A DNA stretch of 64,000 bases from Escherichia phage ph0011: the sequence record OP557969.1; one strand, 5' to 3'. Positions 12,683 to 17,237 of this stretch are shown piece by piece. The translations under genes were made by a program, and so were the position numbers. The notes below the pieces were generated by a model, which saw nothing but the letters and a program-made list of their open reading frames with translations, did no database searches and was not told the DNA's origin. How positions within the stretch are numbered: the stretch's first letter is position 1; each line of letters starts with the position of its first letter.

Positions 12683-13240
12683 ATGAAACCTAAACAAAAC
12701 GTCGATGCCGCACTTGGGTTACCAAGTGCTGAACAGTGGATGCAAATGACTGGACAGCAATCTGAAGATAGCAATGAAATGGAGTTATATCAAGATTGTG
12801 ATGAAGTTGAAGAAACCGAAATCTCTTTAGAAGAAGCCAAAGCTGCAATGGAAAAATTAAAAGCCATGCGTGTCCAACTACGTGATCTACCGGACATTAC
12901 ATCAAGAAAAGTTCAATTGGACAGATTGGCACAAATGGCAGAAAGAAAGTTTGAAGACATATTTGACCGTGCATTCAACTGTGAAGACCGATTTGCTGCG
13001 GAAATGATAAATGCAGCAAATTCTATGTTAAAAATTGCATTAGATGCTCATGCAAAGATTATTGATTCCGATGTTAAGTTAGTTGACTTACAACTAAAGA
13101 AAGATAAGATGGAAATAGATTTAAACATGAAGCCCCGCGATGTAGCACCACAGACAAGTGATCCAAATGCAATTGAAGGTCAAAAGGTTGTACATAAAAC
13201 TCGCAATGAAATGCTTGCTGCAATGAAAGAAAATAAATAA
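12683..13240 (+). CDS. hypothetical acidic protein
   Basis: 185 aa; acidic N-terminal half, coiled-coil-like composition. Confidence 0.55.
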
Positions 13241-13268
13241 CTAAAACGTCTATTAATGGAGTTATTAA

Positions 13269-13805
13269 ATGAACAAGCTACAAAAAATTCTAACAGAAAA
13301 TAAACCTGTGTATGAATATCGTGTCAAATTTGCATTTGAGCCGAGTGCTGAACAATTGAGTAAAGTTACACAACGACTAGTAGATCGATATGATGCATTT
13401 GAAGTAGGTGCGTTGAAGAAAACAATTTTTATGGAAAAACCACTAGATTTTTACGAACTCGATTGTGGTGAAATCTGGATGTTTGATTTTAAATGCAATC
13501 GTGGTGTTCAGTCTAATGTACTGATGTATGAAATTGGAAACCTTCTGTCTGTTACTGAAGCACTTATTCGTGTTCGTAATAAAGATGAGCCTCGTCAAAT
13601 CGAAATGACAGATTTGGAAGATGATATTGATTTTGATGTTATTGATGAACCTATTATCGGTGTTGATTTTGGTAAACCTGAAGATAGTACTGATTTGGCT
13701 GGACAACAACGTGCTGATACAGCAGTTTCTGATGCCATTAAAGCTGTTAAAAAAGAAAATAAATACTCTCAATATATGAGTGCTGGTTTTAGTAAAAAGG
13801 ATTAA
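13269..13805 (+). CDS. hypothetical protein
   Basis: 178 aa; ATG 28 nt after previous stop. Confidence 0.55.
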   Translation: MNKLQKILTENKPVYEYRVKFAFEPSAEQLSKVTQRLVDRYDAFEVGALKKTIFMEKPLDFYELDCGEIWMFDFKCNRGVQSNVLMYEIGNLLSVTEALIRVRNKDEPRQIEMTDLEDDIDFDVIDEPIIGVDFGKPEDSTDLAGQQRADTAVSDAIKAVKKENKYSQYMSAGFSKKD

Positions 13806-13808
13806 GAC

Positions 13809-14351
13809 ATGAGTATACTTAATGAAATGTTGGACTATGAAGATAATGAGTTAAATGAAGCTCGACCATATAGTCGTTCACAGAGTGCTATTGATAGTGC
13901 AAAAGGTAAAGTAAAAGGTTTTTTTGGTAGTGGGCAGATTGAACAAGGTGCACAAGAGGTTGGTGCTGAAGCGAACCGTTTGTGGGCAGAGTTTAAACGT
14001 TATGTTGGTCGAAAATATGGCAAAGCACAACCATCTGTTCCTTACGCTGATGTTGCACAGTTTTTTAAAGGGAACAATCTTGATATTAAATACTTGGGTA
14101 ATAATCCACGTCGTTCTTTTACACCAAAAGATGTAGGTACTGCTTTATTAAACGCTGCTCGTGATCTAATGAATGACTATCGTGACCAACAAGGCGAGGA
14201 AGAACGTTCTGAACCACAACAGTCACAGCGTACTGCACCTGAGCAACCAGCACAACAAGAACAACCAAAAGCACAAGGTTCCAGTATCCCTGATGCTCTA
14301 CAAAAATTAAGTCCAGAGCAACGCGACCAACTGTTACGTATGCTTTCTTAA
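13809..14351 (+). CDS. hypothetical protein (Q/E-rich C-terminus)
   Basis: 180 aa; ATG 3 nt after previous stop. Confidence 0.55.
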   Translation: MSILNEMLDYEDNELNEARPYSRSQSAIDSAKGKVKGFFGSGQIEQGAQEVGAEANRLWAEFKRYVGRKYGKAQPSVPYADVAQFFKGNNLDIKYLGNNPRRSFTPKDVGTALLNAARDLMNDYRDQQGEEERSEPQQSQRTAPEQPAQQEQPKAQGSSIPDALQKLSPEQRDQLLRMLS

Positions 14352-14364
14352 GGAGAACCATCAC

Positions 14365-15864
14365 ATGGATAATTTTTTCAGTACTGAAACTACCACCGTT
14401 CCTAATGGATATGTATATACGTCCCATACTGGTGCAAAATATGTATTTCTAGAAGGATTTTGGTTCAATGATAGTAATATGTTAATGGTAGACCCTAGAA
14501 AATACCCATCCATGTACGCAAGTGCTTGTCAGCAAATTGTCGAGCATAATCTGGCTTCAAATGAATATAAGATTGGTAAAAAATATATTATTGAAGGCAA
14601 AGAGTGTACATTTATTGGAGAAAACCGATTTGAATCAAAAGATGGTATTCTACTAACTGAAAGTGAAATCATCACTGAGTTAATGGCAGACGACCATCGC
14701 GTATATAATGTGTCTAAAGAAACACTCCAAAAAGAATGGAATGACTTAAAATTCTATATTCTTCCCCCATATGCTGATGATATTTCTATTCCAGCAGGTA
14801 TGGAAGTTGGTGGATTTAAATATGTTCCTAAAAAACATCGTTTTGTTGATATTAAATCGGGTCATCCGGTTGATCCAGTAATGACCCGTAAACTGTCAGA
14901 TGAAGGTATGCGTATTGCCCGTCAGTTAGCATCAAAAAATAAACTAATTCCAATCAAATCTACATTAGTTCAAGGTAATTCTCGATGTGAATGGAATGGT
15001 AAAGATTTTTGTGACAACGATGGTAATGTGGTAATCCCAGAGCAAAATGCACATACAATCATTAATGCGTATCAGAAATTTGTTAAAAACCACCCTGAAG
15101 ACTTCCCAACTCTAACTGGGGAACACGAACATAGTGAACAACGATTCGGTTCAGGTGAAAAACCAGAACAACGAGGTAAACCGACAGCTTTTGCAACAAA
15201 AGAATCAATCAATGAAGCTGATGAAGAAATTGAAGATTTTGAAAGCATTACGGTCCCTGATGGTTATCGAATGACTTCTTCTAAAGGAAAAACCTATACG
15301 AAGAAGAACAACATGTGGTATGATATTGAAACGAAAAAACGACTCAATACTAGTGCATCTAAAAGTGTTGAACTAGCAGCCCAGCGTGACATTTTCCGTC
15401 ATAACAATTCAGGGGCAATGAAAATCGGCACAAAAGTTAAATCCAAACAAGGAAAAGAATATTCTTATGTTGGTGGTGATAGATTTATTAGTGCCGATGG
15501 GAAGTTTATTCCAAAAGCAACCGCAGAGAAATTACTGGCTAAGTATGATGAAGAGAAAGCAGTTCAAGATGATGTGAAACCGGAAGATTCTAGTACTGAA
15601 CAACTTCATCAAAAAGAAGAACCAAAAACCAAACCAGAAAACATTTCTGAACCTGAGCCAGAAAAGGAATCTGAAACTGATAACATTGCTGGTGATGATG
15701 TACAATCATTGGCTTCTAAAATCAAAGAGTCTCCTTATGCTAAAAAAATCACAGTACTGTTAACTCGTGGTGATGAGGTTTCTCTACTTGCTGCTGACAT
15801 TTTACTTTCAGGTAAAAAGGATGAAACAGTGCAAATTTTAAAATCATTAAATAATAATGATTGA
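14365..15864 (+). CDS. hypothetical protein with internal duplicated motifs
   Basis: 499 aa; AGGAGAA RBS; duplicated segments (GKKYIIEGKECTFIGENRFESKDG / GKEYSYVGGDRFISADGKF); acidic C-terminal region. Confidence 0.6.
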   Translation: MDNFFSTETTTVPNGYVYTSHTGAKYVFLEGFWFNDSNMLMVDPRKYPSMYASACQQIVEHNLASNEYKIGKKYIIEGKECTFIGENRFESKDGILLTESEIITELMADDHRVYNVSKETLQKEWNDLKFYILPPYADDISIPAGMEVGGFKYVPKKHRFVDIKSGHPVDPVMTRKLSDEGMRIARQLASKNKLIPIKSTLVQGNSRCEWNGKDFCDNDGNVVIPEQNAHTIINAYQKFVKNHPEDFPTLTGEHEHSEQRFGSGEKPEQRGKPTAFATKESINEADEEIEDFESITVPDGYRMTSSKGKTYTKKNNMWYDIETKKRLNTSASKSVELAAQRDIFRHNNSGAMKIGTKVKSKQGKEYSYVGGDRFISADGKFIPKATAEKLLAKYDEEKAVQDDVKPEDSSTEQLHQKEEPKTKPENISEPEPEKESETDNIAGDDVQSLASKIKESPYAKKITVLLTRGDEVSLLAADILLSGKKDETVQILKSLNNND

Positions 15865-15886
15865 TAACTAAAAGGATTTATTTAAA

Positions 15887-16840
15887 ATGACAAAAAAAAT
15901 TAATGAAGCACAAGTTAAAATCGATATCGCAGGTTTAGAATCTGATGATTTGGAAACACTATCACGTATGCTGGCTCTTGCTGGGCAAGCAGAACACAAA
16001 GACCCAGTTGTTGCTCAAGTTCCTTCGATGGGGGCAATTTCACCATCAATTCCACCTATTGCACCACTAGACATTGATTCAATTGGAGCGGATGAAGAAA
16101 TCAGTGATATGGAAACTTCAATTGAAGATCCACTAGCATCGGCAGTTGATGAACTTTCCTCAGATGTTGCTGATTTTGGTGCTGAAGGTGATGAAGTTAG
16201 TATGGATGCTGAATTTTCAGAACCAGATGCTGAAGAAGATTTATCACTAGACTTGAGTGGTCAACCACAACTTGAATCCGTTGAAGATGACGATGAGGAA
16301 GAAGAAATTATTGAAGAAGAATTTGATTTTAGTCGTATGCTATCACTTGCTGGTATCAACGAAGAAGATGAGGATTTTTCAGTAGAGGACGAACCTTCTG
16401 ATAATAAAGAACAATTTCTTCCAGACCTAAGCATCGTTGAAGATGAGGAACCATCAAACAATACTGATTATGGTCCATATAGCTCAGAAGCTGATGCGGT
16501 ACGTGACGGCGAACTAAAAACTAATGGTGTTGAAGGTGATAATTTTGTTGTAATTGTGAAAGGAAACCAATTTTATTGGAGACGTGTTGTAGATGAAGAC
16601 ATTGACAATCGTCCAGAACCTGAGTATTATGACAATGAAGGAAATGAACATCGTGTTCACAAATTTGAACCAAAAGCACCAGGTACTGCACTAGGTGATA
16701 ACCCACTAAATGTTAATGAAAGTGAAGATGATGATTCACCAGAAGGTAACATTGATCTTGAAGATGATTCTGATGAAAAAGTAGAAGATATTTTTGAAAG
16801 TCTCCAAGAAAAATATAAGAAATTTTTAGGAGATATTTAA
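15887..16840 (+). CDS. highly acidic protein (scaffold, internal or DNA-mimic candidate)
   Basis: 317 aa; long D/E runs such as VEDDDEEEEIIEEEFDF. Confidence 0.6.
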   Translation: MTKKINEAQVKIDIAGLESDDLETLSRMLALAGQAEHKDPVVAQVPSMGAISPSIPPIAPLDIDSIGADEEISDMETSIEDPLASAVDELSSDVADFGAEGDEVSMDAEFSEPDAEEDLSLDLSGQPQLESVEDDDEEEEIIEEEFDFSRMLSLAGINEEDEDFSVEDEPSDNKEQFLPDLSIVEDEEPSNNTDYGPYSSEADAVRDGELKTNGVEGDNFVVIVKGNQFYWRRVVDEDIDNRPEPEYYDNEGNEHRVHKFEPKAPGTALGDNPLNVNESEDDDSPEGNIDLEDDSDEKVEDIFESLQEKYKKFLGDI

Positions 16841-16841
16841 T

Positions 16842-17237
16842 ATGACATACAATTATCGTGAACTTGTTGAAGCATTGGATGAAATTACAGGTCGAGATGA
16901 AGATGAAAGTTTTTCAGTTCAAGTCGAATCTGATGTAGTAGCAGTTGATATTCTTAAGGATATCACTAAATGCCTCATTGACGTTGTTGATAATATTAAA
17001 TCTGGTGAAGATCAAAAAGAAATTGTCGAAAAACTACAAAAAGCACGTGACATTTTGTCTGACATGAGATATGATGATGAAAGTACTGAAGTTGCTGATG
17101 AAGAAGTTCTGGAAGCAATTGCTGGTTGTTTTGGAACCGAAGGTATGGGTCCAACAATTGACCAAGATGGAGTCCAGCACTATAACGAACCAGGTGCACC
17201 AACATATGCAGCACGTCAAGGTTATGTTGGAGACTGA
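16842..17237 (+). CDS. acidic hypothetical protein
   Basis: 131 aa; ATG 1 nt after previous stop. Confidence 0.55.
   Translation: MTYNYRELVEALDEITGRDEDESFSVQVESDVVAVDILKDITKCLIDVVDNIKSGEDQKEIVEKLQKARDILSDMRYDDESTEVADEEVLEAIAGCFGTEGMGPTIDQDGVQHYNEPGAPTYAARQGYVGD

Follow-up and report, generated by a model that had tools for sequence, protein, structure and literature searches.

What do the six consecutive genes at positions 12683-17237 of a stretch of Escherichia phage ph0011 (sequence record OP557969.1) contribute to the phage particle? The stretch, 64,000 nt long and hereafter called the window, had received an initial annotation made from its letters alone, in which the six products were described as a block of strongly acidic proteins that would serve as scaffold or core, as internal ejected proteins or as DNA mimics. 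Of these products, here A185, B178, C180, D499, E317 and F131, we tentatively read C180, E317 and F131 as head-internal virion proteins trimmed by a protease, and as candidates for the inner body of the clade to which the phage belongs.

The gene block and its detection in virions

All six open reading frames (ORFs) were found on the plus strand exactly where they had first been placed, each beginning with ATG behind a plausible Shine-Dalgarno sequence. They are real genes, since ratios of nonsynonymous to synonymous substitution (dN/dS) against phage 121Q range from 0.04 to 0.19, with 0.19 in the acidic linker of E317, and so indicate purifying selection on the block, linker included. A 6-kb query around the block matched 50 phage records, the best being UE-S1 (88% nucleotide identity over 100%), followed by the 121Q/PBECO4/phAPEC6/SP27 group at ~86% and then by Klebsiella and Salmonella relatives. 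Because the best nucleotide matches are all Asteriusvirus jumbo myophages of ~350 kb (UE-S1, 121Q, PBECO4, phAPEC6 and SP27), we assign the window to a Rak2/121Q-type jumbo myovirus, a somewhat divergent Asteriusvirus closest to UE-S1. In the narrow sense the phage is not T4-like, although homologues of T4-type gp20, gp21, gp22 and gp23 are present. Protein identity between the block and its Asteriusvirus copies is 83-94%, and orthology is one-to-one with 121Q gp556-561, phAPEC6 gp271c-266c, RaK2 gp046-051 and CBB_209-214.

A185 (12683..13240; 185 aa; 121Q gp556, RaK2 gp046, CBB_209; phrog_16202) has an acidic N-terminal third followed by long helices. In B178 (13269..13805; 178 aa; 121Q gp557, RaK2 gp047, CBB_210, phAPEC6 gp270c), an abundant virion protein, a ferredoxin-like core at residues 11-110 precedes an acidic tail. 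C180 (13809..14351; 180 aa; RaK2 gp048, GAP32_205) combines two conserved N-terminal [LI]xE sites, ILNE and LNE-(A)RPYSR, with a Q/P-rich linker and a conserved C-terminal LSxxxRxQLLRxLS. D499 (14365..15864; 499 aa; RaK2 gp049, phAPEC6 gp268c) is internally duplicated: its first repeat, the VPNGY module (residues 8-100; 14386..14664), and its second (residues 293-385; 15241..15519) are 32% identical (E 1e-12), and its C-terminal 50 aa are conserved. The last two are E317 (15887..16840; 317 aa; 121Q gp560, RaK2 gp050, CBB_213, phAPEC6 gp267c), polyanionic and predicted to be largely disordered, and the acidic F131 (16842..17237; 131 aa; 121Q gp561, RaK2 gp051, CBB_214).

Virion mass spectrometry (MS) is available from four related phages, RaK2, GAP32, CBB and phAPEC6, and hence for orthologues rather than for the particles of this phage. 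Among the 54 virion proteins of RaK2 (Table S3) are gp047 with 4 peptides, gp048 with 3, gp049 with 7, gp050 with 1 (5.3% coverage) and gp051 with 2. In CBB (Table 4), CBB_210 yielded 13 peptides (60.5% coverage), CBB_213 five (18.9%) and CBB_214 one (15.4%), and CBB_210, the B178 orthologue, accounted for 44 spectra in a single gel slice. The orthologues of C180 and D499 are marked as detected in GAP32 and RaK2 (CBB Suppl. S3), and gp270c, gp268c and gp267c are listed for phAPEC6 (Table 1), together with the MoxR ATPase gp265c. Five of the six block products are therefore mature-virion components in related phages. The exception is A185, whose orthologues, like those of the following gene product G126, were detected in none of the four proteomes. 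Comparison of virion and prohead proteomes had been proposed as a check; the published data place the five orthologues in mature virions and not solely in a scaffold removed at maturation, which keeps an internal or ejected role viable. Residues 39-192 of E317 hold 53 D/E and only 2 K/R and hence offer no usable tryptic peptides, which explains the low coverage of its orthologues.

Charge and architecture of E317 and F131

Acidity, on which the first interpretation of the block rested, is an extreme property of two of the six proteins only. Isoelectric points (pI) and net charges are 4.83 and -10 for A185, 4.73 and -9 for B178, 5.39 and -2 for C180, 5.53 and -13 for D499, 4.05 and -75 for E317, and 4.05 and -22 for F131. 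For the window's 35 other genes the median pI is 5.3, 12 products have a pI < 4.8 and net charge per residue is never < -0.08; A185, B178, C180 and D499 stay within this normal range, whereas E317 (-0.24 per residue, 30% D+E) and F131 (-0.17, 25% D+E) are the sole outliers in the window. The acidic run DDDEEEEIIEEEFDF, singled out in the initial annotation, does lie in the 15887-16840 product, at residues 134-148 (nt 16286-16330).

In nine members of the clade, which represent at least six genera, the net charge is -59 to -83 for the orthologues of E317 and -18 to -33 for those of F131, one truncated Vibrio-phage copy left aside. The 67 database homologues of E317 range from -47 to -90, with 21-30% D+E, and keep their charge even where the linker has been swapped for a quite different G/M/D-rich sequence. 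DNA tandem repeats under the acidic runs were looked for and not found. As the charge is kept across the clade while the linker sequence is hardly conserved, the extreme charge of E317 and F131 is clearly selected and not a product of chance.

A disorder calculation had been suggested for the block, and E317 is predicted to be mostly disordered. An AlphaFold2 model built on the 67-sequence alignment has a mean predicted local distance difference test score (pLDDT) of 61, with 127 residues < 50, and residues 39-192 (16001..16462) are predicted to be unstructured except for two short helices (82-90 and 148-154); it is this region whose sequence is poorly conserved while its charge is kept. Also predicted with confidence are a helix at 19-36, a mini alpha/beta domain of beta-alpha-beta-beta topology at 194-233 (16466..16585; pLDDT 85-96), of which some homologues have two or three copies, and a C-terminal helix at 299-314 (16781..16828) with a conserved I-x-E-S. 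Conservation among the 67 homologues, which vary in length from 245 to 594 aa, coincides with the same predicted islands. Two of these islands are copies of one element, in which SRMLxLAG comes after an acidic patch: copy 1, ESDDLETLSRMLALAGQAE (residues 18-36; 15938..15994), is near-invariant in the homologues, and copy 2 is EEEFDFSRMLSLAGINEE (residues 143-160; 16313..16366), both being predicted helices. No further SRMLxLAG element was present in the 94 kb of structural-gene sequence examined. Ahead of the mini-domain, an LPDLS[L/I]xE element (residues 178-185; 16418..16441), conserved in 9/9 clade members, forms a candidate prohead-protease site.

Searches of Pfam, NCBIfam and PDB, the last by both sequence and fold, gave no match to E317. 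On the model, it is a multivalent, polyanionic, intrinsically disordered protein, the islands of which (the duplicated SRMLxLAG helix, the ~40-aa mini-domain and the terminal helix) are predicted to be of a binding type. It should be added that three metagenomic homologues (P0045, P0060 and P0080) contain 2-3 tandem units of LPDLSLxE plus mini-domain, with a protease-type site before each; such proteins would be polyprotein-like if that site is cleaved.

Candidate protease sites and the place of the proteins in the particle

The head module of 121Q is separate from the block and consists of portal gp598, small proteins gp599 and gp600 (the latter very acidic), the T4 gp21-like protease gp601, the gp22-like scaffold gp602 and the gp23-like major capsid protein (MCP) gp603. 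In the scaffold [L/I]-x-E occurs 24 times, where 6.9 occurrences would be expected (P<0.0005), and the MCP has L-T-E at 41-43, which fits a reported maturation from 42.2 to ~37 kDa; the authors of the RaK2 study likewise favour processing. Given this enrichment and this fit, the T4-type rule of cutting after Glu in L/I-x-E probably applies in the Rak2/121Q-type clade.

Sites of this kind are conserved in three block proteins (a slash marks the predicted cut). In the E317 homologues, [LIVM]-x-E with a free middle residue stands in register at residue 7 (INE/A) in 67/67, at residue 185 (LPDLS-L/I-x-E) in 65/67 and at residue 304 (I-x-E/S) in 64/67. In F131 a segment ELVE/A ends at residue 10 and is conserved in 7-8 of nine clade members; C180 has ILNE/M at 6 and LNE/(A)RPYSR at 17, its N-terminal site being conserved in 8/9. 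An N-terminal [LI]xE with Glu at residue 5-12 was found in all five proteins of the head module gp599-603, in 4/6 block proteins and in 5/61 other genes, the latter being the rest of the window plus a 30-kb 121Q segment (Fisher P 0.002, or 0.02 without B178). A185 and D499 lack such a peptide, and B178 was dropped from the set for the reasons given below.

On this basis we propose that C180, E317 and F131 would enter the prohead core as T4 internal proteins do, by way of short N-terminal peptides with [L/I]-x-E at their end, and would there be trimmed by the gp21-like prohead protease. E317 would be cut also at LPDLS[L/I]xE, which would part its acidic N-terminal portion from the C-terminal domain. 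The trimmed proteins would remain in the DNA-filled head, where their polyanionic chains would keep DNA out of the volume that they fill and would thus be candidates for the inner body. At infection they would be released, either together with the DNA or before it.

Published CBB gel data (Suppl. 6) bear on the cleavage of the E317 orthologue, peptide positions being those of the annotated protein. Peptides 12-27 and 28-38 were each seen six times, in slices 02, 05, 09 and 11, and peptides 207-217, 218-232 and 233-239 in slices 09, 11, 12 and 13; slices 02 and 05 thus have N-terminal peptides only, 12 and 13 (otherwise chiefly containing proteins of 20-26 kDa) C-terminal ones only, and 09 and 11 both. 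QINEASVR, which spans INE/A, was never seen in CBB, in a search for fully tryptic peptides. These observations agree with cuts at residue 7 and close to residue 185, though weakly, because of that fully tryptic search and because abundant proteins are smeared over all slices.

What makes the head-internal reading attractive is, in the first place, that 121Q and phAPEC6 have an inner body made of proteins unrelated to those of phiKZ. Bubblegram imaging showed in both a radiation-sensitive, phiKZ-like inner body on the portal axis, measuring 91 x 18 nm in phAPEC6. The authors of the phAPEC6 study found no homologues of phiKZ inner-body proteins, and their only suggestion for its components was RCC1-like proteins. 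A further attraction is that long N-terminal parts before X-x-E typify inner-head proteins of other giant phages: the ~185-residue N-terminal part of E317 resembles the propeptides of 100+ residues known on inner-head proteins of phiKZ/SPN3US-type phages, whose inner-body and ejection proteins are likewise jumbo-phage virion proteins of unknown fold. A narrower proposal, to which we give a distinctly lower probability and which we regard as rather unlikely, is that E317 and F131, with their neighbours, build the inner body of 121Q/phAPEC6-type phages. The latter would then be a disordered core on the portal axis, electrostatically repulsive and closed to DNA, which is ejected before the genome, loaded through T4-like peptides ending in [L/I]-x-E and unrelated in sequence to the inner body of phiKZ.

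The comparison with T4 goes part of the way. Its core and internal proteins (gp67, gp68, IPI-III and Alt) likewise have a short N-terminal [L/I]-x-E peptide followed by A or S, T4 also has core proteins and internal peptides that are acidic (PMC5694885 and general knowledge), and the clade too has gp21-, gp22- and gp23-type genes. However, the internal proteins of T4 are basic and small, cleavage of the block proteins is only predicted, and the positional counterparts of gp67 and gp68 are 121Q gp599 and gp600, not block proteins. Homology to gp67, gp68, the internal proteins or Alt was not detected by Pfam, NCBIfam, PHROG or PDB search, nor was homology to the phiKZ gp89-97 family in PHROG, Pfam and PDB searches.

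Several observations weigh against the head-internal reading. Location in the head, as opposed to neck or tail, is something that we infer, and the block genes sit among tail-tube and head-completion genes, outside the head module. Neither sequence nor fold likeness to T4 internal or phiKZ inner-body proteins emerged from Pfam, NCBIfam, PHROG and PDB. [LI]xE is a motif of low information; E317 contains seven in total against 6.5 expected from composition, hence no excess, and the other block proteins show no enrichment either. The N-terminal LTE of B178 is not conserved among relatives and is uncleaved in CBB virions, where the spanning tryptic peptide ILTELTPEYSYR (7-18) was seen 9 times; these are the reasons for dropping B178. 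N-terminal peptides of E317 are retained in CBB virions, unlike the targeting propeptide of T4, and spectral counts for E317 orthologues are low, though most of the protein is blind to MS. Finally, the fully tryptic CBB search could show no cleavage site directly, and its slices are smeared, the MCP and proteins of 20-24 kDa appearing in slice 01 as well as in 13.

The best surviving alternative, which we consider less probable and on balance unlikely, places the proteins at the neck, the portal exterior or the tail, as accessory proteins of head completion, collar decoration or whisker bases. The module follows the genes of the tail sheath (6454-9117), three tail-tube paralogues (9507-12168) and a gp4-like protein, and is apparently co-transcribed with the tube paralogues and gp4; cryo-electron microscopy of phAPEC6 shows a collar, tail decoration proteins and fibres without gene assignment; and the unprocessed N-terminus of B178 in CBB agrees with such a location. 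It leaves unexplained, however, the conserved N-terminal [LI]xE peptides common to the head-core module and the conservation of a polyanionic disordered chain of 150 residues, and RaK2, for which no tail whiskers are reported, has kept all block genes.

E317 and F131 might alternatively be co-injected as polyanionic decoys that would occupy host DNA-binding defences or nucleoid proteins in place of DNA. Their negative charge is extreme and conserved, presence in the virion permits delivery before any gene expression, and T4 IPI* offers the precedent of an injected anti-restriction head protein. We nevertheless hold this improbable. Like Ocr and ArdA the proteins are very acidic, but known mimics are compact and folded with a fixed charge geometry, whereas the acidic region of E317 is predicted to be disordered, variable in length and unconserved in sequence, and E317 is virion-borne and a late structural rather than an early gene product. 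No likeness to Ocr, ArdA or any known mimic was found: no Pfam match at E<=0.01, none in NCBIfam or PDB, and a best Foldseek PDB E-value of 2.9. On these results the DNA-mimic option of the initial annotation, as a folded protein of the Ocr/ArdA type, is not supported.

Less probable again, to the point of being very doubtful, is an external polyanionic brush, which its folded C-terminal part would hold on the surface of the virion and which would serve colloidal stability or the repulsion of anionic capsule or mucus. A disordered polyanion with terminal anchoring elements, as predicted for E317, would suit it, and phAPEC6 and CBB look 'hairy'; the hairs seen in negative stain are, however, ordered fibres unlike a disordered chain, and the conserved protease-type sites and the N-terminal peptide point inward. 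An assembly scaffold discarded at maturation, likewise among the first suggestions for the block, is the least credible of all: acidic, helix-containing proteins close to morphogenesis genes would suit it, and A185 and G126, absent from virion proteomes, could be chaperones, but five of the six products are found in the mature particles of as many as four phages, and a separate gp22-like scaffold, to which the block proteins show no homology, adjoins the protease elsewhere and has the strong [LI]xE enrichment that E317 lacks.

The ends of that scaffold were compared with the block. Among 121Q gp602 (L011 16439-17554) and 120 homologues (P0174-P0293), which extend from Rak2-type phages to cyanophage-type T4 relatives, 120/120 homologues end with an acidic patch, an amphipathic helix and (R/K)(K/R/x)LAG(L/I) near the C-terminus, and nearly all start with MSKLxKxLxES; these conserved ends are likely to bind shell or core. 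Loading of E317 as cargo by mimicry of the scaffold end, suggested by its duplicated element, found no statistical support. A profile hidden Markov model of the scaffold ends had no match in the window, and with a position-specific scoring matrix (PSSM) over 43,699 windows E317 copy 1 ranked 8th and a segment of F131 5th, scores reached by 21% of E317 shuffles and, for F131, with a shuffle P of 0.046. By far the best scaffold-end match of the analysed stretch is DIFELEQIEYLAGQ, residues 76-91 of a 125-aa acidic protein (1912-2289, plus strand; phrog_14786), with a PSSM score of 19.0 vs 8.8 for the next (shuffle P 0.0003).

Genomic neighbourhood and wider meaning

Upstream of the block are the genes of a neck protein, the sheath and the tube paralogues, and immediately before it that of the gp4-like head completion protein (12233..12652, plus strand), which is basic and has a TnsA-type nuclease domain. 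The syntenic run ends with a seventh gene, G126 (17241..17621, plus strand; 121Q gp562), the product of which is Cys-rich and non-acidic, and is followed by the genes of a MoxR-type AAA ATPase (17923-19248) and a DUF2201 metallopeptidase/VWA protein (19323-20747). This order (three tube genes, gp4, seven small genes, MoxR ATPase, VWA protein) is kept in six or more genera, as compared in 121Q, UE-S1, phAPEC6, A4, Yersinia fHe-Yen9-04, Pectobacterium CBB, Salmonella Munch, Klebsiella RaK2, Xanthomonas XaC1 and Vibrio phage 2.275.O. By sequence and synteny, the block is a local copy of a module conserved across Rak2/121Q-type jumbo myoviruses.

The last terminator-like hairpin before the block lies at 10213..10234 (plus strand), the same terminator being annotated in UE-S1 and Munch, and none was found between 10234 and 17621. 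From this hairpin-free stretch, the block seems to be transcribed in a single unit with the gp4-like gene and tube paralogues 2-3. A separate unit of MoxR ATPase and DUF2201/VWA genes begins at two strong, near-identical promoters of the sigma-70 type (17635..17753, plus strand; 17635-17663 and 17726-17753). These tandem elements, of 33 nt, are perfect sigma-70-type promoters with TTGACA/TTGACG and a TG-extended TATAAT; a third, weaker one stands at 17853-17881, all three falling within the 300-bp gap before the ATPase gene. Since no hairpin intervenes between 10234 and 17621 and the promoters lie in this gap, the block seems to make up the distal end of a structural operon to which the ATPase/VWA unit does not belong. 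The MoxR ATPase orthologue was reported in phAPEC6 virions (6 peptides) despite having promoters of its own. The T4 late-promoter motif TATAAATA occurs once in the whole window vs 10.5 times expected from shuffles, 100/100 of which contained more; because of this depletion, late transcription in the Rak2/121Q-type clade probably uses a different signal.

The gp4-like and A185 genes (12233-13240) have a synonymous divergence (dS) against 121Q of 2.6 and saturated, compared with only 0.29-1.1 in the genes to the right, and megablast alignments to the 121Q group begin only at 12243, while UE-S1 aligns throughout. Given this jump in dS and the start of the alignments, 12233-13240 is taken to be a mosaic or recombination boundary. 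Elsewhere in the window, the thymidylate synthase gene (22347-23987, plus strand) encodes 546 aa vs 309 aa in 121Q; Pfam Thymidylat_synt matches it in two stretches, separated by an in-frame insertion of ~240 aa after about residue 115, for which the alignment showed no obvious intein junction residues. A 664-aa protein (3369-5363, plus strand) with matches to HNH/homing-endonuclease PHROGs and Pfam DUF7487 is encoded between the genes of the neck protein and a dNMP kinase.

All six block proteins have full-length PHROG matches, in order to families 16202, 14802, 16152, 16305, 15988 and 14971; the six E-values are 6.8e-95, 3.4e-101, 2.8e-99, 7.7e-215, 1.9e-122 and 2.9e-54. Four of these families are labelled 'virion structural protein', that of A185 (phrog_16202) is of unknown function, and that of C180 is called 'Hsp70'. 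No Pfam, NCBIfam or PDB match backs the name 'Hsp70 heat shock protein', which PHROG and RefSeq give to the C180 family (13809-14351) and which looks like a propagated annotation error.

As a finding, the block itself is ordinary: on these matches it is an already catalogued virion-protein cluster of Rak2/121Q-type jumbo phages, with close orthologues deposited, clustered in PHROG and detected in four virion proteomes. The new point is a short, testable list of inner-body candidates in the 121Q/phAPEC6 group. If the proposal is true, an inner body would have arisen independently in a T4-related lineage, which would bear on how 350 kb of DNA are organised in the head and released from it.

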